From: Thermoprotei archaeon
Lineage (GTDB): Archaea > Thermoproteota > Thermoprotei > Thermoproteales > B15-G16
Assembly: GCA_003649205.1 (NCBI GenBank)
Contig: QMRC01000002.1
Location: forward strand, 32,001-96,000
Length of the DNA stretch: 64,000 nt
Direction: 5' to 3'
Below the pieces are notes generated by a model. The model was not told where the DNA came from, searched no databases, and worked only from the letters and a program-made list of their open reading frames with translations. How positions within the stretch are numbered: the first letter of the stretch is position 1; each line of letters begins with the position of its first letter. The translations under genes and the position numbers were made by a program. This document shows, piece after piece, positions 25,298 through 34,650 of this stretch.

Positions 25298-25768
25298 ATG
25301 TCTAGTATAGCGGACTTAGTTAGTAACTACGTACGGTACGTAGTGCTCGAAACGTACGCACACGCTACTGAGAGCTTAGATAAGGTTAAGCAAGCATTCA
25401 TCAACGTACTTCCTGAAGAACTAAGGTCTAGAGTACCCATCGTCTACGAGGTACAGGAAGGACACTACGGTAATATAGTGATCATAGTAAGAACCTTCAT
25501 AGATAGGAAGGACTACATAACGATGCTCATAGAGTACCTATCTAAGTCCATGAGCAGTACCGACAAGAACCAGCTAGGTAGTAGCCTCCGGATAAGAGTT
25601 GATGCTGCTGGTAACCTATACCTGAGATTTGATAAGCAATTAGCCTATCGTGGTATTGTGAAGTTATGTGATGGTGATGACGTTATCAAGATCAAGATCT
25701 CGTTCAATCTTAGAGCTAAGAAGTATGGTATTGATAAGCTCTGTAAGGAGTTGGGACTAATTGAGTAG
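25298..25768 (+). CDS. RNA-binding protein, predicted exosome-associated (COG1325-like)
   Basis: HATES..KV, EGHYGN, LYLRFDKQ; usual neighbour of rnp3. Confidence 0.88.
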   Translation: MSSIADLVSNYVRYVVLETYAHATESLDKVKQAFINVLPEELRSRVPIVYEVQEGHYGNIVIIVRTFIDRKDYITMLIEYLSKSMSSTDKNQLGSSLRIRVDAAGNLYLRFDKQLAYRGIVKLCDGDDVIKIKISFNLRAKKYGIDKLCKELGLIE

Positions 25769-26525
25769 GAGAAAATTCGTTGATATTGGTCTTAATCTAC
25801 GTAACTTCTCTGTTGACATACTTGAGAAACTACTGAGCTTCCTCAAAGGCCTAGGGTACAGTGGCTTCTCTACTAGGTTGATCGTTCAGTGTGGTGAGGA
25901 TTTGGGGAAGGTACTTGAGATTAGAGATGTACTGAGGAGCGTCAGTGAACGTGTTGGTCTTGAGTACATTTCGAGAGTAGATATTGTTTCGAATAGGAAG
26001 GGCTTCATTAAGCTGTGTTTGAGGAGTATTAGGAGATCATTTGAATTGGTTGCTATCGGTACCTCATCTCTTGAAGTTGCTAGATTCGCAGCTAGGGATA
26101 GGAGAGTAGATATCGTCTACTTCACTAGTGGTAGTAGGAGGCTTCTCGATGATGTTGAGTGTAGAATGCTTAGTGAAGGTGGTAAGCTACTTGAATTATC
26201 TCTCTCAAAGCTCTTGCTAGACATTAGTAAGTACTTCGCAACATATAGGTACGTCGTTGAGATGTGTAGTGAGTACGGTGTCAACATCGTATTTACTAGT
26301 GGAGCATCTTCAGTTCACGAGTTGAGAGCACCTAGGGAATTAGCTAGTGTATTAGTAGCTCTCGGTCTACCTGTGGAAAGAGCACTAGACGCTGTCTCAG
26401 ATATTGTGTGGAAAGTTGTTGAGGTTAATAGGAAGAAGTTGAGAGGTATTATCGTTGCTGAAGGGGTTGAGGTAGTTGGTAAGGAGAAGGAGGAGAAGGT
26501 ACGTAGTTCTGAAGGTACTGAGTAG
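25761..26525 (+). CDS. rnp3: RNase P protein Rpp30
   Basis: ARFAARDRRVDI, TSGASSVHELRAPREL; gene order. Confidence 0.88.
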   Translation: MSRRKFVDIGLNLRNFSVDILEKLLSFLKGLGYSGFSTRLIVQCGEDLGKVLEIRDVLRSVSERVGLEYISRVDIVSNRKGFIKLCLRSIRRSFELVAIGTSSLEVARFAARDRRVDIVYFTSGSRRLLDDVECRMLSEGGKLLELSLSKLLLDISKYFATYRYVVEMCSEYGVNIVFTSGASSVHELRAPRELASVLVALGLPVERALDAVSDIVWKVVEVNRKKLRGIIVAEGVEVVGKEKEEKVRSSEGTE

Positions 26526-26853
26526 TGAAGACATTCCACTTCAATTACTTGTTAATCACTTAGAGAGATTCCGTGAAAAGCTCTTTGGACTACTGTACTG
26601 TAGATGGGTAAACTTCAGAATAGTTTACGTAAATGAGAACGCTCGAACCCTAGTCATTCAAACCGATCACAGGTCTCTTCCCTTAGTTAGATTACTCACA
26701 TGCTTAGTGACTGAGGTTGAGAACTGCAAAGTACTGCTCTACTGTCTTAAGGTTACAGGTACTCTGCGTAAGGCGAAGGCACAGGCAGATAGTATGGGTA
26801 TTCAGGTGAAGTACATGGAGAATCTCTTTAGGGAACTACTACAAGCTATGTAG
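26476..26853 (+). CDS. rnp2: RNase P protein Pop5
   Basis: RRRRYVV...VTGTLRKA; gene order. Confidence 0.85.
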   Translation: MVRRRRRRYVVLKVLSSEDIPLQLLVNHLERFREKLFGLLYCRWVNFRIVYVNENARTLVIQTDHRSLPLVRLLTCLVTEVENCKVLLYCLKVTGTLRKAKAQADSMGIQVKYMENLFRELLQAM

Positions 26854-26924
26854 TACCTCTATCGTCCGTATCTTGTGTGTCAGTTATTTAACTCATTTGG
26901 TGCTCACATGAGATTGGTGTTGTA

Positions 26925-27743
26925 ATGAGCTTGAGGACTGAGCTTCTTACTAGGTCACTACCTAGAGTAACGTATGAGAAATTAGTGAGCTACCTCACGT
27001 TACTGTATAGGGTAGGTGGTAGAGCTAGGGTAATGGACTTAGTAGAGAGCGGTGTTGAGACCAAGGGTAGGGATGTAACGTTATTCTGTAAGAGAGTTGA
27101 ACTTATTGTTGGAGACGGGACAGGTTACGTCACATTAAGTCAATTCGGTAGGAAATTCATTGAGTTACTACAGGTAGATCAGAGAAAGGCGAAGTACTAC
27201 CTCCATAGGTACCTCTACGATAAGCTACCACACTATAGGCTATTTATTGATGTCGTTACAGAGCTAGGTGAAGCAACACGTGAAGAAATCCACAGAGTAC
27301 TCAACGATAAGGTTAAGGAGCTACTACCAGGCTCATGGATTAACAGGAACGCTATGACAGTGCTCATGGACCTAGCTAGGAAACTCGACGTTATTGAAGT
27401 TCAAGGAGGAAAGGTAAGACCTAGAGTACACGCACTAATTAACAAGCTCATTAACTCAATGAGCGAGAACGTAGTTGAGCACGAAGGCTACATCCTGGTG
27501 AGAACTGAAGACCTCTTAGCTAAGCTACAGGAGAACTTCAATCTCAGTGAAGAAAACCTAGCAAAAGTACTTCAGAAAACTATTGAGCGTAGTAGGGCTG
27601 ATGGGCTAGTGACGACAATACTAGCACCAACATCACATCCACTCATCTCACCAGAGATCTCAATTCTAAAGATACCACGTGATAAGCTACCTCAATTCAT
27701 GGACCTACTGATACAGGAGGTGATCACACTTGAGAAATCCTAA
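26925..27743 (+). CDS. uncharacterised multi-wHTH protein (first gene of the ATPase-NurA operon)
   Basis: Helix-wing patterns (VTLSQFGRKF, LMDLARKLDVIEVQGGKV); overlaps the next gene. Confidence 0.7.
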   Translation: MSLRTELLTRSLPRVTYEKLVSYLTLLYRVGGRARVMDLVESGVETKGRDVTLFCKRVELIVGDGTGYVTLSQFGRKFIELLQVDQRKAKYYLHRYLYDKLPHYRLFIDVVTELGEATREEIHRVLNDKVKELLPGSWINRNAMTVLMDLARKLDVIEVQGGKVRPRVHALINKLINSMSENVVEHEGYILVRTEDLLAKLQENFNLSEENLAKVLQKTIERSRADGLVTTILAPTSHPLISPEISILKIPRDKLPQFMDLLIQEVITLEKS

Positions 27744-30700
27744 CCTAGTAGATGCCTACACGATATTCGGCTTCCTCGATAGGCCATTTCACCCTGTTGG
27801 TTTGGTCCCCATTAGACGATTTCACAGAGCTGTTGGCTTAGGACCTGAACTCAGTAAGGTATTGAGTACCTTAGAGAGGTTTATAATCAGTAGAGAGAAC
27901 CTACTCTTCCTCGTAGTTGCTGAGTACGGTTGGGGTAAGAGTGAGCTACTTGACGAGATCGAGCACATAATCCACGAGATGTTTAGCGACAAGGTTGTGG
28001 TAGTTAGAGAGGTTCTCACACCCGAGCTAAAGCTACCTCTAGACAAGATCTGTAAGCTACGTGAGGAGACGAATAAGCACATCGTAGTGTTAGTAGATGA
28101 AGTTGATGAACTATCCAGATTAGCATCTGCTGTTCTACGCGAAGAGGAGATACCAGACTCAATTAGGAAGGCTTTTGTAGACTTCGGAACTAGTCTCAGA
28201 GCATTACTCGAACCGCGCGTATTCTCATCAGTACTCAGAGGTAAGGTCATAGACAAGGTACTACTCATTCTAGCCGTAACACCACAGCTAGCTACACTAC
28301 TCTCTAGGTGTGTACCAGATGTATTCACAGCTGTTAGAGGTAGGATATGTGGTGAAGTTAGGCTAGAGAAGTTCCTCTACTGGCAGCTAGAGGGCTTAGT
28401 CGTAACGAGGTTGATCTCGTACTCATCACCAGAAAGAAGGCAGTTAATCGAGAAGGGTAAGCTACATCCATACCACCCCTTCATTAGAGATGCACTACCA
28501 ACGCTGTACACACTAGCTAAGAGCATCGAAGTTAGAGAAACACCCTCACCGAGGCTCCTAGTTAAGCTACTCTCAGCACTAATGGATGAGGCAATACTCC
28601 ACTCAATACGAGAAGGTACTAAGGAATTGAGAACAATAGGTGTTGAAGACATAGTCGAAGTAATCTCTAAGTGCACTGAAGCAGGTGAGAAGATAGTAGA
28701 CAGAGAGTACTTGGAGGAGCTACTGAATGCAGTACAGAAACGTGAGGAGAAACTAGTACTCAAAATACTAGCACTCTCCGAAATACCACGAACACTAGAC
28801 TCAATAGAGTACGAGCTAAGAACTAGGTATGGAATCACCACAAATACCGAGCAAATAATCAACACATTAATTGCTAGAAACTTAGTGAGAAAACTGGCAG
28901 CAGTAAAAGTACCACTAAATCGGGAAGTACTAACAAAACTGAATAGACTAAGGCTAAAGTTTGGCCTACCACCAGTACCAACAACCATAGACAAACTCTC
29001 CATAGAGTATCCCAACTACGTAGCTAGATACGAAGGTACAGTCGAGAGAGAAACGAAGATCCTGATTGAGATCTACTTCCCACCACTTCCTGAAATACTC
29101 AGAGAACTACAGGAACAAAAGCTAGAGATCAACTACGTGTACACAGTTCCAGAGGAGATAAATGCCATAGTCTTCAGGAAGAAACTACCTAAACATCTAG
29201 AGGAGATCCGTAGGAAAATACATGAAGCAAGCGAAGAATTCACAGCACTACTAAAAGCACCAACAATAGACTCAGAACTCTACACAAGACTACACACAAT
29301 AGTTGTCAGCAAGATCGTGAACATAGCACCAAAAGGTACTCTGAGGTACGTAAAGACTAGCGACCTAGGGACAGTATCCGTAGACGATGTAAGAGAAGGA
29401 CTTAGAGTATGCTACGTAACAGTACTAATCAACGAGTACACACAAAAGTTCATAGACCTAGACAAACTACTTGAAGTACTGAGGAAGATCATTAGACAAG
29501 GCTTCATCAGCGGTTACGAAGGTAGGAAATACGTCAAATTACCTTTCGACGCTCTAGTACTAGTAGTAGTTAGCACCACAAGGACAACACAGGAAATACA
29601 GGAAGAAATCACTAAATTCCTTCAATCAACTAGGTGGAAGATCTTCGACCTAACATCAGATAACTTCGTACACATAGAGATCTACGGTAGAGACAAGCTA
29701 GATGAACTAAGGTACGCATACATAGGTGCTCACCTAGGTCTAGGAGATGTACCGGAGGAGTACAGGGTATTTACACAGGTAGCTCAAGAACTTAGATCGA
29801 GAGTAGCTGGCTCACTTCAGGAAGTACTTAGACGCTACATAGACCTAGGTCTCGTAGTAGGACTACGTCTAAAACCCGGTAGGAGTAAGGACATAGCACT
29901 TAGAGACATAGTTAGGAAGTGGATACTCAACGAGAAAATCACCGATCAACCACCAGTATTCTGTAGTGAAGATGGTACACCTAGAATATCACCAGTCGAG
30001 CTCACCCTCTACAGATACCTACAGTCTGCCCTTGGTGAAATGCCAATAAGCTGTGAAGTACTTACCGAGCTGATTAGATCAGCGTACCCAGTTAGATTGT
30101 GGAGGAACTTCAAGGAAGACGACCTAGTGAAAGCTATGAAGTTAAGAGGATTACTCATACCACAATCAATTGAGGAAAGAGCATACTACGTAATTGGCCC
30201 AAGTACAGTAAAGTACGCCATCAAGTACCTAAGGGCGAGAGTTAATGCAGCTAGAAACAAACTCAGACTAGAAACCACAGTCGTGATCACACATAGATTA
30301 CTAAGTAGAGAAATAGTGGTTAAAGTACCTGAAACAAGTACGAAGGTAAGAGAGCTAGAGATGAAGCTAAATGACATAGAGAACGAACTCAACATCTTAG
30401 AGGAAGTAGCAAACGCACTCAAGTCACCAGAGAGCATTTTAGAGGTATTCATAGTCAGATATGCAAAGCTAAACATGGAAATAGATGAGATATGCGAGAA
30501 ACTAGATGAAGTAGCTAAAGCACTAAGTGACGAGATCAGCAATGTCAAGATGGATGTCCTCAACTTCCTAACAACACTAGAAGCAAATCTATCAGATGTA
30601 TGGTCAGCAATAAACAAACTACCTGACACACTGAAGAACGAAGTCAACAAAGTAGTTACAGACTTTGTGAATGACATACTGAAGAGATTAACATCGTGCA

Positions 30701-31467
30701 AGATCTGGGACCTCGAATACCTAAAAGCAGTACTAACAACAATGAGAAAAGACATAGAGAACCTAAGGAACTACGTACAAGACTTCACCACGGCAGTGAT
30801 GAATCTCCTCGACTACACTAGAAACTACAGTGAAGCAATAGACGTACTAATCAAGATAACAGACAATACAGCACTCAAACAGGAGAGACTAAGCACAGAT
30901 GAGGTACTCACCGACATAGCTGAGGTAGTGAAGATACACGAGGTAAGCACCTGGAACAAGGTAATAGAGAAGATTAGAGAGTGGTGCACAGAACTACAGC
31001 AGAAAATAGCTGAAGTAGATAGAGAGGTTAGAGCTAGACTACTAAAGACAGAAGAAGAGTACCGAGTACTCACGAGAAAACTCGAGTGGATCAACCAACG
31101 AATACTCAAGACAAAGGTAAGTACAGAACTCAATACTCAACTACTGGAGAAAGTCAAGAAGATATGCAGGGAACTGAGCACAGAACCCAAATTACTACAC
31201 CTCTACACCTTCGATAGACCACTACTGTTCACAGAGCTAGAGAAGTTCAGAGAAGCCAGGGAAGTAGTGACGTCACTACTCCATGAACTAGCAAATACCT
31301 TGAAGACAAAAGTGGAGATCCTAGACTACATAGCGTCACTAGGATACAATAGAGGTATTGACGTACAGGAGTTGGTAAAGATCTCGAACTTAAGTGAAGG
31401 TGAGGTAGTTAAGGTACTTGAGAACCTAGCTAAACTAGGTATTGTCGAGAAGAAGTACGTGACCTAG
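27730..31467 (+). CDS. large AAA+-type P-loop ATPase with wHTH repeats and a long coiled coil
   Basis: Walker A AEYGWGKS, Walker B VVLVDEVDE, HPF and SPR motifs, heptad-rich region (about aa 830-1190), C-terminal wHTH. Confidence 0.8.
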   Translation: MRNPNLVDAYTIFGFLDRPFHPVGLVPIRRFHRAVGLGPELSKVLSTLERFIISRENLLFLVVAEYGWGKSELLDEIEHIIHEMFSDKVVVVREVLTPELKLPLDKICKLREETNKHIVVLVDEVDELSRLASAVLREEEIPDSIRKAFVDFGTSLRALLEPRVFSSVLRGKVIDKVLLILAVTPQLATLLSRCVPDVFTAVRGRICGEVRLEKFLYWQLEGLVVTRLISYSSPERRQLIEKGKLHPYHPFIRDALPTLYTLAKSIEVRETPSPRLLVKLLSALMDEAILHSIREGTKELRTIGVEDIVEVISKCTEAGEKIVDREYLEELLNAVQKREEKLVLKILALSEIPRTLDSIEYELRTRYGITTNTEQIINTLIARNLVRKLAAVKVPLNREVLTKLNRLRLKFGLPPVPTTIDKLSIEYPNYVARYEGTVERETKILIEIYFPPLPEILRELQEQKLEINYVYTVPEEINAIVFRKKLPKHLEEIRRKIHEASEEFTALLKAPTIDSELYTRLHTIVVSKIVNIAPKGTLRYVKTSDLGTVSVDDVREGLRVCYVTVLINEYTQKFIDLDKLLEVLRKIIRQGFISGYEGRKYVKLPFDALVLVVVSTTRTTQEIQEEITKFLQSTRWKIFDLTSDNFVHIEIYGRDKLDELRYAYIGAHLGLGDVPEEYRVFTQVAQELRSRVAGSLQEVLRRYIDLGLVVGLRLKPGRSKDIALRDIVRKWILNEKITDQPPVFCSEDGTPRISPVELTLYRYLQSALGEMPISCEVLTELIRSAYPVRLWRNFKEDDLVKAMKLRGLLIPQSIEERAYYVIGPSTVKYAIKYLRARVNAARNKLRLETTVVITHRLLSREIVVKVPETSTKVRELEMKLNDIENELNILEEVANALKSPESILEVFIVRYAKLNMEIDEICEKLDEVAKALSDEISNVKMDVLNFLTTLEANLSDVWSAINKLPDTLKNEVNKVVTDFVNDILKRLTSCKIWDLEYLKAVLTTMRKDIENLRNYVQDFTTAVMNLLDYTRNYSEAIDVLIKITDNTALKQERLSTDEVLTDIAEVVKIHEVSTWNKVIEKIREWCTELQQKIAEVDREVRARLLKTEEEYRVLTRKLEWINQRILKTKVSTELNTQLLEKVKKICRELSTEPKLLHLYTFDRPLLFTELEKFREAREVVTSLLHELANTLKTKVEILDYIASLGYNRGIDVQELVKISNLSEGEVVKVLENLAKLGIVEKKYVT

Positions 31468-31469
31468 GA

Positions 31470-32243
31470 GTGATGACCATGTACATACTCCTAGCACCTA
31501 AATCCACAGCAACTACTAGAGCACGAGTACTCGCAGAAAAACTACAGAAGAAACTAGGAGTAAATGTAAAGATTAGCGAGAAACCAGTAGAGAACACAAA
31601 GCTCAATATAGTGCTACAAACATTTTGGAACTCAGAACTACTTGACCTAGTTAAGAAAGTGAGGTGTAGGTACCTCATAGTTGCTGATAGTGAAGATCTA
31701 CTGAAGGAATTTGGTATCCACAACTACGCCAGCAAACCAGCTATAGTAATGGTTAGAGGCTCTAGGAACTACACACTTAAAGCACACATCGGGACAAAAG
31801 CATTCAAGAACGGTATAGACCTGGTAGCGTCACCAGATGGTACACCGTATTCAATTCAGATAGGTACAGGATACCTAATAGCGATCAAGCCCTTTAAAGT
31901 AGATGAGAAGTTAGTAACTGAGAACTTCGTCGAAGATATTAAGCAGATAGTACAGGCACTAACTCACAATCATGAGAAGCAGAGAGACATCACTAAGATA
32001 GTTGCAGTACTGAAAGAGAAGATAAGAGAAGAGAGGAGGAGAGAGTACTTCTCAAAAACTGCGAGAGCGCTTGAGTACATAGCTAGTGGGGACGTAACCA
32101 ACATAGATGCTACAACACTAGAGCTACTAGTTGACCTTGGTCTCGTCAAAGTACTTGAGACAGAATCTCAGTACAAGTTCATACCTAACACAGATCTCGC
32201 AAGACAGGTAATTAGAACACTAGAACGTGAAGGTTACCTATGA
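31470..32243 (+). CDS. uncharacterised protein with C-terminal coiled coil and wHTH
   Basis: 257 aa; LELLVDLGLVKV wing motif; tightly coupled to its neighbours. Confidence 0.7.
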   Translation: MMTMYILLAPKSTATTRARVLAEKLQKKLGVNVKISEKPVENTKLNIVLQTFWNSELLDLVKKVRCRYLIVADSEDLLKEFGIHNYASKPAIVMVRGSRNYTLKAHIGTKAFKNGIDLVASPDGTPYSIQIGTGYLIAIKPFKVDEKLVTENFVEDIKQIVQALTHNHEKQRDITKIVAVLKEKIREERRREYFSKTARALEYIASGDVTNIDATTLELLVDLGLVKVLETESQYKFIPNTDLARQVIRTLEREGYL

Positions 32244-33334
32244 CAACACCACTAGAGAACATCATAAGGGAAGTATACAGAGCAGCTGAGAGAGTATTCC
32301 CAAAGGTAAGATCAAAGCTCCTCGAACTAAGTCGTGAAGTGAATAAGCTAAGTACTGAATTCGCTAATCCAATTGAGAGAAGCAAATTGAGATACATCGT
32401 AGTAACGGTTGATAGTGGCTTCATAAAGCTAAAGTACGCAAACTTCGCTATAGCTATAGTCGTAGCACATGCAATATCATCAGTAGGTAAGGGACAGGTA
32501 GTTAACGTAGCAGCTGAACCAGTCATGATAAAGACCTTGAAGAGAAGTGAGTACGCACTCCACTACGTATCCAAAATCATCGAGTACAGATGCCTACACA
32601 ACGTACTTGAGAAGGTACTCAGAGAGAAGACCAGCGAAGATGTAGTGGTCCTACTCGATGGAGCACTAACGTACCCCGAAGAGAGAACCGATGATATCGA
32701 ACTCACAAAACTCTACCAAGAGTACCGTAGAGAGTACGAGAAGGTACTTGCAATACTAGAGAGTTACAGAGATAGAACCTACGTAGTAGCTATAGCAAAG
32801 GACCTACCAGTAGACAAGTACCTAGATGCTCTCGAAGAACTAACTGAGTACAGAGGAGTAGAGAAATTCCGTAGTCTACATACATGGCTCTGTAGAGCTA
32901 CAGAACTACTCCACGAGAGAACTGCAGTAGACATACTACTCAGAGCTAGAGGAGTACCATCGTACCTACACCCAGTTAGAGTAGATAACTTGAGAAAGTA
33001 CAGAGCACCTACAGTACCACAGATATCTAGGTACGGCGTCTACGGCACATACGTGAAGCTAACACACTTGAGAAGACCACTCTACGTAGAGTTCATTGGG
33101 TGGAATCTACCCAAGGTAAGCACACTGATGACGGTACTGTACGAAACATCTATCTACAGCCCTAGGCCAGGTTACCCGGCACCACTCTTCATAGTTGACA
33201 GATTGACTAAGGTCGATAAAGCCATAGCGAGAGCCATAGCAACAGCAATAGAGTACGCAGCAAAACACGCACTAGGTGAGCTATATGTACAGGTCTTTAC
33301 ACCCACATTAAGGGAAGAGTACGAGCACTACTGA
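32240..33334 (+). CDS. NurA-family (RNase H-fold) nuclease, stand-alone paralogue
   Basis: VVTVDSG, VLLDGAL, AIAKD, GYPAPLFIVD motifs. Confidence 0.8.
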   Translation: MTTPLENIIREVYRAAERVFPKVRSKLLELSREVNKLSTEFANPIERSKLRYIVVTVDSGFIKLKYANFAIAIVVAHAISSVGKGQVVNVAAEPVMIKTLKRSEYALHYVSKIIEYRCLHNVLEKVLREKTSEDVVVLLDGALTYPEERTDDIELTKLYQEYRREYEKVLAILESYRDRTYVVAIAKDLPVDKYLDALEELTEYRGVEKFRSLHTWLCRATELLHERTAVDILLRARGVPSYLHPVRVDNLRKYRAPTVPQISRYGVYGTYVKLTHLRRPLYVEFIGWNLPKVSTLMTVLYETSIYSPRPGYPAPLFIVDRLTKVDKAIARAIATAIEYAAKHALGELYVQVFTPTLREEYEHY

Positions 33335-34014
33335 TGCGAAGTACGTACCGACTTGAGTTCTCTGATCAAAGCTCTACACTTCTCAACAGCATCAATAGCA
33401 TCCCTACCCCAAGCATCAGCACCAATACTCTTAGCAAACTCCTCAGTTGTAGGTAAACCACCAATAATCACCTTAACCCTATCCCTAAGACCTCTCTCAC
33501 GAAGTAACTCGACAACCCTCCTCATCTCATCCAGCACCGTAGTTAGGAGCGCTGACATAGCAACAATACCAGCACCATACCTCTCAACAGCCTCCACAAA
33601 CTTTTCAGGCGGTACGTCAACACCAAGATCAATAACCCTGAAACCAGCTGCTCTCAACATCGTAGCTACTAAGTTCTTACCAATGTCATGAATATCACCA
33701 CGAACAGTACCAATAACAACCGTACCAACCTCACCACTAGCCTCAATACACTCAACCAACTTAGGCTCCAAAACCCTAAGACACTCCCTAAAGATCTCAG
33801 AAGCTAAAAGCAACTCAGCTAAGTAGTACTCACCACGCTCAAACCTCTCACCAATAATCCTCATACCATCACTAAGAGCACGAAACACAATATCCCTAGC
33901 CGATACACCATGCTTTATAGCTTCCTCAACAAGCCTAAGTACCTCATCCAACTTAAGCTCCACAAATGAATCACGAATCCTAGCTAAAACATCACCACTA
34001 CACTGCATACACAC
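33328..34014 (-). CDS. methyltransferase cognate corrinoid (B12-binding) protein
   Basis: GTVRGDIHDIGKNLV, DLGVDV, MSALLTT, IIGG. Confidence 0.92.
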   Translation of the reverse strand: MCMQCSGDVLARIRDSFVELKLDEVLRLVEEAIKHGVSARDIVFRALSDGMRIIGERFERGEYYLAELLLASEIFRECLRVLEPKLVECIEASGEVGTVVIGTVRGDIHDIGKNLVATMLRAAGFRVIDLGVDVPPEKFVEAVERYGAGIVAMSALLTTVLDEMRRVVELLRERGLRDRVKVIIGGLPTTEEFAKSIGADAWGRDAIDAVEKCRALIRELKSVRTSHQ

Positions 34015-34071: not shown

Positions 34072-34650
34072 GTGATCCCTGTGAGAACAAAGCTATCACC
34101 CATCACATTGACAATTCTGCTAATTACAGTACTAGTAATTGGGTGCGTACTATACACGTACCTCACAAGAGAGGAAACTTCAGGTGCAGTTATAGAAGTA
34201 CTTCCTGACACCAAGTACTACACCGAGGTACTTAAAGCAATTAGGAGCAGTAAGAAGTACATACTCGTAGCAATGTACTTAGCTAAGTACGATCCAGATG
34301 ACCTAGAGGATAGAGCAAATGACCTACTTAGAGAACTCATCAAGGCTAGACAACGTGGAGTTAAAGTCTATGTGTACCTAGAGTACAGGACATATAGCGG
34401 TACCATTAAGGAAAATCTCCTAACAGCAACCTTCCTGAAGAGATTTGGAGTAGAGGTGAGGCTGGATAACCAGACAGATACAGATCACATGAAGTTAGTG
34501 ATCGTAGATGGTGAAGTAGCGTTCGTAGGAAGTCATAACTGGAGTGAAGCTGCTCTAACGTACAATCACGAGCTATCAGTCAAGATCAAGAGTAGAGAGG
34601 TAGTGAAGGTACTGGAGAGGTACTTCTGGTTACTCTGGCACAGAGGTTAG
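34072..34650 (+). CDS. membrane-anchored phospholipase D-like (single HKD) protein
   Basis: N-terminal TM helix; HMKLVIVD...GSHNWS...NHE. Confidence 0.85.
   Translation: MIPVRTKLSPITLTILLITVLVIGCVLYTYLTREETSGAVIEVLPDTKYYTEVLKAIRSSKKYILVAMYLAKYDPDDLEDRANDLLRELIKARQRGVKVYVYLEYRTYSGTIKENLLTATFLKRFGVEVRLDNQTDTDHMKLVIVDGEVAFVGSHNWSEAALTYNHELSVKIKSREVVKVLERYFWLLWHRG

Follow-up and report, generated by a model that had tools for sequence, protein, structure and literature searches.

A candidate DNA-processing cassette of the Thermoproteales encoding a BrxC-like ATPase and a NurA-type nuclease

The four-gene operon and its products

We examined a window of 64,000 nucleotides (nt) from the genome of a Thermoprotei archaeon (assembly GCA_003649205.1, contig QMRC01000002.1, here C2, positions 32,001 to 96,000), in which four consecutive genes, referred to as A to D, encode a tandem winged-helix protein, a large BrxC-like ATPase, a candidate adaptor and a NurA-type nuclease. 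A first-pass annotation of this DNA had singled them out as four co-oriented, overlapping or abutting frames, and both the exact coordinates and the junctions were confirmed. Read directly from the sequence, A and B overlap by 14 nt, B and C are separated by a gap of 2 nt and C and D share an ATGA overlap. The open reading frames (ORFs, with lengths in amino acids, aa) and the signals around them are as follows.

26884..26891, + strand: TATA-like box TTATTTAA, read directly; putative archaeal promoter of the operon
26925..27743, + strand: gene A, 272-aa ORF with ATG start (ORF listing and translation)
27716-27725, + strand: 10-nt Shine-Dalgarno-like motif GGAGGTGATC, read directly, 4 nt 5' of the TTG of gene B
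27730..31467, + strand: gene B, 1245-aa ORF with TTG start (ORF listing)
31470..32243, + strand: gene C, 257-aa ORF with GTG start (ORF listing)
32240..33334, + strand: gene D, 364-aa ORF with ATG start (ORF listing)

The end of TTATTTAA lies 34 nt upstream of the ATG of gene A. The TTG start of B is unusual, and the GGAGGTGATC motif upstream was taken as support for it on general knowledge of internal genes in archaeal operons. For C, the true start may be the ATG at 31479, which is preceded by GGAGTGAT.

Gene B was described from the outset as a large ATPase whose N-terminal AAA+ domain is accompanied by winged helices, both internal and terminal, and by a long coiled coil, and this description is upheld by a structural model, Pfam and alignment. 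The AlphaFold model covers residues 1-832 (predicted local distance difference test, pLDDT, 85.9; predicted template-modelling score, pTM, 0.74) and runs from the AAA+ core and lid (to ~320) through a winged helix (~338-395) and an α+β domain (~430-670) to long helices and a second winged helix (~755-821). We divided the protein accordingly, using secondary structure assigned with DSSP where indicated (H, helix; E, strand) and abbreviating winged helix-turn-helix as wHTH.

27730..28689, + strand: B residues 1-320, core of the AAA+ domain with its helical lid (model, alignment and fold)
28690..29004, + strand: B residues 321-425, first winged helix, wHTH1 (DSSP H338-348, H356-367, H373-382, E387-395)
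29005..29739, + strand: B residues 426-670, α+β domain with long helices 488-509 and 516-530 inserted between strands (DSSP)
29740..30219, + strand: B residues 671-830, long helices and second winged helix, wHTH2 (model and alignment)
30220..31284, + strand: B residues 831-1185, coiled-coil region whose length varies between families (weak coiled-coil matches)
31285..31464, + strand: B residues 1186-1245, C-terminal winged helix with a conserved E/R-K-K/R-Y-V motif at its end (Pfam and alignment)

Walker A (YGWGKSE, K70) and Walker B (VVLVDEVDE, D123/E124) both lie within the first 130 residues and are invariant in 21 orthologues, as are G67/G69, R130, R157, T184, R205 and R275, with a candidate arginine finger among R130, R157, R205 and R275. 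The second winged helix carries an invariant P787/L790/W791/R792/E796/D798/G807 motif, and the terminal one (residues 1197-1242) is matched by TrmB (0.0064) and MarR_2 (0.025) and contains invariant G1205, L1230, Y1243 and V1244. Mean identity to orthologues is 36% for the AAA+ part, 22% for the α+β domain, 15% for the coiled coil and 35% for the terminal winged helix. Beyond residue 830, B has 415 residues in the window versus 265-268 in the 12 shortest orthologues, which belong to family f3. Matches to the coiled coil are weak and comprise NCBIfam SMC/ASRP models, PADLOC ZorA-type tails and coiled coils in the PDB; a B profile compared with the sequences of solved structures gave coiled-coil and generic P-loop matches only.

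Structural comparison placed the N-terminus of B nearest to Orc1/Cdc6 proteins. Archaeal and eukaryotic Orc1/Cdc6 structures ranked top in a Foldseek search with the model (2qby_A, 1.6e-8), and VIA-align over residues ~8-320 gave them Z scores of 13.9-15.6, led by 7jgr_G (15.6, 245 residues aligned, root-mean-square deviation, rmsd, 3.4), 2qby_B (14.3) and 1w5s_A (14.1), with generic AAA+ proteins such as ClpA just 1-2 Z units lower. The longest alignment was with the N-terminal half of BrxC (9zdx_A; 345 residues, model positions 9-475, Z 12.4, rmsd 7.2), and both the Orc1/Cdc6 and the BrxC alignments run into wHTH1. In Pfam, AAA_16 was matched by 21 of 21 B-family members and BrxC_BrxD by 20 of 21 (best 7.9e-5), mostly below threshold; nSTAND_NTPase5 gave sub-threshold matches in 18 of the 21 and DUF6079 matched three at E<=1. 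The window's own B has no match to BrxC_BrxD (PF10923) at E<=1, and neither B nor the 21 members matched any Pfam Cdc6/ORC family. The domain order, as read from the secondary structure of the model and the weak coiled-coil matches, appears to agree with that described for BrxC, namely an ORC/Cdc6 AAA+ domain, a wHTH, an α+β domain of ~200 residues, a second wHTH and a coiled coil of 250-500 residues bearing a small distal domain (PMC12839542, PMC13326643). Together with the structural alignment and the sub-threshold Pfam matches, this order (as in PMC12839542) sustains the first-pass likening of B to BrxC, and on the basis of the model B looks like a BrxC-like AAA+ ATPase of the ORC/Cdc6 clade. 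The α+β domain of B is probably equivalent to that of BrxC, given its position and the description in PMC12839542. Public orthologues are labelled 'hypothetical protein' and have no precomputed Pfam domain, for example Pogu_0218 of Pyrobaculum oguniense.

Gene D is the sole member of the operon whose product matches a curated family. Residues 54-325 match Pfam NurA (PF09376) at 2e-16 with 60.7 bits (cut-off 21), over positions 3-254 of the full profile, and both of the acidic motifs noticed at first pass, VDSG (D58) and LDGA (D140), are present. All 19 cassette orthologues of D match NurA, with D58, E115, D140, K187, Y282, E284 and Y312 invariant in the 19 sequences. In NurA of S. solfataricus, catalysis is assigned to D58/E116/D133 together with a K202/Y298 pair (PMC3326311), and by motif order D58/E115/D140/K187/Y312 of D run parallel to D58/E116/D133/K202/Y298 of that enzyme (PMC3326311). 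D is thus predicted from its conserved residues to be a catalytically intact NurA-type nuclease. Orthologues of the Pyrobaculum type are shortened to ~250 aa, and a D profile gave no match at E<=1 among solved structures.

The products of A and C had both been described as wHTH accessories. This holds for A, a tandem winged-helix protein with the conserved motifs QRSIPFP, GKGRGDITRF and N..SP..W.N.VA, and holds for C with confidence only in its C-terminal third. The nearest neighbours of an Atlas model of A (pTM 0.71) are AAA_assoc_C double winged-helix domains, and PF09821 (AAA_assoc_C), weakly matched in 4 of 13 A members, was the best family found. The suggestion that the first gene is BrxA- or DUF4007-like was not borne out, as neither was among the 16 Pfam families matched at E<=1 by the 13 members and PADLOC returned no family for A, C or D at E<=1. 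C consists of a variable N-terminal α/β part, mostly missing from the Pyrobaculum and Thermoproteus orthologues, followed by a conserved C-terminal helix (ERRR..S.TL motif) and winged helix, with invariant E188, R189, S195 and Y256. Its model (pLDDT 65.6) is confident at residues 170-257 only, where a long helix precedes the winged helix; an Atlas model is poor (pLDDT 0.54), and Foldseek gave weak flavodoxin-like or amidotransferase-like matches (best 6.2e-4, template-modelling score ~0.3). Neither Pfam nor PADLOC assigned C to a family, and its profile found nothing meaningful among solved structures. From these features C is a candidate adaptor. A predicted complex of D and C scored 0.00 against a mark of 0.32, which is evidence neither way.

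Conservation of the cassette across the Thermoproteales

The order Thermoproteales, as sampled here, comprises Vulcanisaeta, Caldivirga, Thermocladium, Pyrobaculum, Thermoproteus and metagenome-assembled genomes. Of 41 genomes of this order, 40 contain a match to B, and the exception (G028) is 88% complete. A profile of its N-terminal 832 residues (A4) matched 31 of 31 Thermoproteales, a sample that includes the genome of the window, and none of 270 other Thermoproteota; against 1.84 billion representative proteins the B profile gave 34 matches at E<=0.001. In 18 of 20 fetched loci B is followed by a gene of 167-229 aa and then by one of 247-308 aa, overlapping or abutting. The middle gene is homologous to C, since C is matched at 2.4e-12 by a profile of 19 orthologues from which the window was left out. 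Among 33 named loci, which overlap with the fetched ones in genomes, the order B→C→D occurs in 26, the contig ends in or at B in four, C-D is inverted in one and the arrangement is lacking in two. This adjacency spans three families, and the exceptions to it concentrate in genus g8. The co-occurrence of the genes elsewhere, raised as a question in the first-pass annotation, was therefore found for B, C and D; gene A is conserved throughout the order and unlinked outside this lineage.

A has a single-copy homologue in 41 of 41 relatives. Its profile (A5) matched 31 of 31 Thermoproteales strongly, and 10 of the 270 other Thermoproteota gave weak partial matches (8e-6 to 7e-4). It adjoins B in none of the 20 fetched loci and, among the named loci, only in the sister genome. 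That A and B have a common phyletic profile and that a single operon contains both of them in this lineage speak for a functional connection.

Comparison with the sister genome (L038, B 96% identical) gave ratios of nonsynonymous to synonymous substitution rates (dN/dS) of 0.075 for A, 0.081 for B, 0.19 for C and 0.13 for D; the ratio for the neighbouring gene for a B12-binding-domain protein is 0.16. These low values and the order-wide orthologues indicate that all four genes are real and subject to purifying selection. Comparison of B between families gives 26-31% identity over the whole protein and 36% in the AAA+ part, figures similar to the 31-35% of Rad50 and a little below the 41-45% of HerA from the canonical NurA operon.

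NurA is known to need HerA. No match to HerA (PF01935) occurs inside the window (C2:32001-96000), as had been stated at first pass; there are 12 genome-wide, and the sole one on C2 is at 186936. The assembly contains three NurA matches, namely D, a copy in the canonical repair operon on contig C7, where the separate locus that the first-pass annotation proposed to look for was found, and a copy beside a second HerA on C2, with no second NurA inside the window in the genome scan.

C7:44434-51633: canonical nurA-herA-mre11-rad50 operon, in that order (L036; from annotation of the locus)
C2:186504-189162: second herA-nurA pair (L037), outside the window, with a gene for a CBS-HTH regulator after it on the other strand

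Relatives have three to five NurA matches each (17 of 17 genomes). A quick tree of 36 NurA proteins, 19 of them cassette D proteins, was built by maximum likelihood. In it the canonical copies (100*), the HerA2-linked copies and a third group form starred clades, and the cassette proteins fall outside all three; a 95* branch leaves them and the canonical clade on one side, and the tree neither establishes nor rules out that D is monophyletic. D is thus neither the only NurA of the genome nor a member of the canonical repair clade, which together had been named beforehand as a reason for doubting a separate system.

The genomic context of the conserved loci is that of housekeeping genes. Upstream of the Pyrobaculum-type cassettes are genes for a 425-aa Clp1-like kinase, a metallophosphatase and a GNAT protein, and downstream are those for an aminotransferase and a NUDIX protein. 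The unlinked A genes adjoin tRNA synthetases, D-aminoacyl-tRNA deacylase and thiolase and, in Pyrobaculum, also an XPB-like helicase.

Some further observations concern individual loci and relatives. In the Vulcanisaeta JCM drafts L050, L052, L062 and L064, B is spread over 2-4 ORFs, and D is split in L057 and L062; these breaks look like frameshift errors of the drafts rather than decay. For G022, a genome in which B stands by itself, an effector swap was considered and rejected, the ORFs after B encoding LivG/LivF-type ABC ATPases and one protein without a PDB relative. Three proteins, P0043, P0044 (~1220 aa) and P0045, have matches to the B profile that are confined to its first ~140 positions, and the identity of P0043 to B is 25% across 333 aligned positions. 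P0043, P0044 and P0046 share with B only the N-terminal AAA+ region, have a long helical C-terminal part and show HTH-like matches; by sequence, they may form a sister family of B outside the sampled Thermoproteota. With P0043 as the query, the 301 Thermoproteota genomes yielded B orthologues only, in 16 genomes, and two metagenome scans and one viral scan returned nothing. At the Pyrobaculum-type A loci L092-L094 and L098, an ORF of 650-656 aa is located upstream of A at a distance of ~700 bp, and a small wHTH gene of TrmB type occupies the other strand in between; this layout was not seen in family f2. In L092, the only copy scanned, the ORF encodes an XPB/ERCC3-type helicase of superfamily 2.

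Relation to known systems and possible function

The closest parallel to B is the BrxC (PglY)/DUF6079/DUF499 group of BREX-related, Ssp and Dnd systems, to which it is similar in size (~1200 aa), in its intact Walker motifs and arginines and, as judged from the secondary structure of the model, apparently in domain order; it differs in that its terminal domain is a winged helix and in being order-wide and vertically inherited rather than patchy. As in systems related to bacteriophage exclusion (BREX), the ATPase gene stands beside genes for a small DNA-binding wHTH protein, a protein in the adaptor position and a metal-dependent nuclease. The cassette, however, has no PglZ, PglX methyltransferase, BrxL or helicase, and NurA is its effector. 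The absence of PglX, PglZ, SspD and JetD, part of the original case for an unusual combination, stands by Pfam and PADLOC, and no PADLOC model fits among the matches listed. The cassette is therefore not a member of BREX and is most like a BrxC-nuclease core with a NurA effector. With HerA-NurA it shares a NurA protein with a D-E-D triad and Lys/Tyr pair, encoded in the same operon as a P-loop ATPase (for B, predicted to oligomerise), but B belongs to the ORC/Cdc6-clade AAA+ proteins and not to the HerA/FtsK hexameric translocases, the HAS barrel is lacking and none of HerA, Mre11 and Rad50 was found among A, B and C by Pfam. Orc1/Cdc6 proteins provide the best structural matches to the N-terminus of B and likewise have a winged helix after the AAA+ domain, but at ~400 aa, with a single winged helix, they are a third of the length of B, which adds the α+β domain, a second wHTH, the coiled coil and a terminal wHTH.

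More distant parallels can also be drawn. Wadjet (JetABCD) similarly combines a coiled-coil ATPase, winged-helix accessories and a dedicated nuclease in one operon; in B, unlike SMC proteins, the Walker motifs fall within residues 66-127 of one AAA+ domain rather than in a split head, and there is no Toprim JetD. SMC and JetC matches are confined to the coiled coil, and JetC was weakly matched by 2 of the 21 B members among the matches listed. Chains of Avs5, representing STAND NTPases (Avs-like), gave Z scores of 11.2-11.4 against the model, and no repeat sensor domain was seen in B. The CRISPR-linked NurA clusters described in PMC3396285 come from the same order and likewise pair an extra NurA paralogue with a non-canonical partner, but they include HerA and Csm6 and lie beside CRISPR arrays, neither of which holds for the cassette. 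The Pyrobaculum table of PMC3396285 appears, from locus-tag numbers, to omit the cassette NurA, as the P. oguniense entries are Pogu_0853, 1165 and 1338 and B is Pogu_0218. An arcade cluster, with B as arcadin-4 and restriction to the Thermoproteales as the common trait, was rejected: crenactin is on another contig, C7, and the 425-aa gene upstream of the Pyrobaculum-type loci encodes a Clp1-like kinase.

We favour, with slightly less than even confidence, the reading that the cassette is a lineage-specific core DNA-processing machine of the Thermoproteales, constructed along BREX lines minus the modification module, in which a vertically inherited BrxC-type scaffold would deliver NurA for maintenance of the cell's own genome. 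Homology points towards defence, whereas distribution, synteny, context and selection point towards a cellular function; because each gene occurs as a single copy, is inherited vertically and is subject to purifying selection amid housekeeping neighbours, the machine most likely acts on the cell's own DNA. We read the module as a domesticated relative of defence machinery. That a BREX-type scaffold-nuclease machine was domesticated at the root of the order into a vertically inherited, possibly essential chromosome-maintenance system is a more doubtful proposal, which we regard as possible.

The mechanism that we envisage is modelled on BrxC, which is reported to show ATP-dependent binding of double-stranded DNA, to form multimers up to heptameric rings and to bind BrxB:PglZ through its AAA+ domain (PMC13326643). 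By analogy, B would bind double-stranded DNA, load and multimerise when ATP-bound. C, encoded between B and D and translationally coupled to D, would be the adaptor in the place of BrxB and bridge B to a NurA dimer. D would take the place of PglZ and be brought to DNA by B, which would thus stand in for the usual HerA motor, and A, a putative tandem winged-helix DNA binder in the place of BrxA, would assist DNA recognition. The cellular task might be, for example, end processing or repair, or a clearance linked to replication or segregation. The analysis establishes the structure of the genes, their homology, fold, distribution and selection; a complex of the proteins, DNA binding gated by ATP, the activity of the nuclease and the role in the cell are predictions.

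Several findings weigh against a housekeeping role and its BrxC-derived mechanism. In the accounts given in PMC12839542 and PMC13326643, BrxC-family ATPases are described in defence systems only (BREX, Ssp/Dnd and BR), and homology alone therefore points to defence. The BrxC analogy of B rests on fold and architecture, as B does not satisfy the BrxC sequence models, and DUF6079 (PF19557) was matched in none of the 301 Thermoproteota genomes, including the 31 Thermoproteales, at E<=0.001; the equivalences of C with BrxB and of A with BrxA are positional only. The α+β domain, wHTH1 and the coiled coil are the fast-evolving parts of B (15-22% identity), as described for BrxC, and other NurA paralogues of the Thermoproteales are linked to CRISPR (PMC3396285). 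The cassette is also not invariable: C-D is inverted and 3.8 kb upstream in L061, D is not adjacent in L033 (genus g7), and G022, which is 94% complete, keeps B with ABC-transporter genes after it and C and D undetectable genome-wide.

Many of the same points favour a fixed innate defence, in which a BREX-like restriction core without a methyltransferase would use NurA to destroy viral or plasmid DNA and would be kept by constant virus pressure. The likeness of B to BrxC in architecture and fold, the rapid evolution of its presumed DNA-recognition parts, the CRISPR association of NurA paralogues in the order and the lineage that retains B without C and D would all fit, as would the interchangeability of nuclease effectors in BREX-related systems, where PD-(D/E)xK, HKD or PglZ effectors occur (PMC12839542). 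We nevertheless consider this, the main rival, rather unlikely. The cassette is single-copy, syntenic and near-universal in the order, its orthologue groupings follow taxonomy, and it lies among housekeeping genes rather than in an island context; A is kept in 41 of 41 genomes even though it is unlinked, dN/dS is low for all four genes, and there is no modification or other self/non-self module and, among the matches listed, no fitting PADLOC model. Of the original alternative of 'DNA processing or defence', the defence half is weakened by this vertical, near-universal pattern, and DNA processing is the best reading. The G022 locus would also suit an arrangement in which B alone is a DNA-organizing or DNA-loading ATPase, involved in chromosome organization, segregation or replication, and C-D is a separable nuclease module that shares its transcript. 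The ORC/Cdc6 fold, several winged helices and long coiled coil of B agree with such a function, and B has the most constrained sequence of the four after A. This is improbable, however, in view of the B→C→D order with overlapping or abutting frames in most fetched and named loci of three families, since such coupling usually marks one complex. We regard as more improbable still a chromatin or transcription regulatory complex, whose winged helices would bind specific sites and whose NurA domain would be non-nucleolytic or RNA-directed: at least five winged-helix modules are distributed over A, B and C, and genes for RNase P subunits lie directly upstream in the window, but those neighbours were unseen in other annotated loci, the NurA catalytic residues are invariant in all 19 D proteins and the ATPase motifs are invariant too. 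That the four genes are unrelated neighbours with a coincidental operon-like appearance is hardly credible; adjacency of A to B is indeed limited to this lineage and the sister genome, but the B-C-D order has been kept across families at the low protein identities given above, A and B share their phyletic profiles, and the stops and starts overlap, with Shine-Dalgarno-like motifs inside the operon.

We found no description of the cassette in the main texts of the open-access literature, and 'NurA' and 'Thermoprote' occur 0 times in the main text of the BREX-diversity survey PMC12839542. The cassette joins a gene for a BrxC-like ATPase to one for a NurA nuclease and is fixed in a whole archaeal order, and four 'hypothetical proteins' encoded by almost all of the Thermoproteales genomes studied have become open to naming and testing. 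Lacking a methyltransferase and PglZ, it offers a simple system for studying what a BrxC-type scaffold does to DNA, and it may exemplify either the conversion of defence-type machinery to core cell biology or an immunity system made universal within a lineage. If domestication is true, B would be the first case of a housekeeping role for a BrxC-family ATPase and of a motor partner of NurA besides HerA, and the cassette would be a signature system of the order. The Thermoproteales are not known to possess the usual archaeal division machinery.

Genes around the operon and further observations

The operon is flanked in the window by the following genes, assigned with Pfam.

25298-26853, + strand: three genes for an RNA-binding protein (PF01877) and the RNase P subunits Rpp30 and Pop5/Rpp14, upstream of A
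33328-34014, - strand: B12-binding-domain protein, overlapping the 3' end of D from the opposite strand
34072-34650, + strand: 192-aa PLD-family protein (PLDc_2, HKD nuclease-like), after the B12-binding-domain gene

The gap between the Pop5 stop and the start of gene A is 71 nt. This RNase P neighbourhood was seen in none of the annotated Pyrobaculum- or Vulcanisaeta-type loci. Pfam found no PglX, PglZ or modification module in the four operon proteins and nine flanking ORFs.

In a Vulcanisaeta-type genome (G004), an 833-aa Rad50/SMC-like paralogue (C1:1132731-1135082, - strand) is encoded ~8.5 kb downstream of B; it is 27% identical to the canonical Rad50, and G013 has a comparable paralogue at a great distance from B. 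The sole actin-family (crenactin-like) match of the window's genome is a 432-aa frame (C7:7438-7965, - strand), consistent with an assignment to the Thermoproteales. Near-identical DNA was encountered in sediment and hydrothermal-vent metagenomes only (runs X1-X6, with no RNA run among them), one run, which may be the source, containing all sampled words and the others a fraction of <=0.26.

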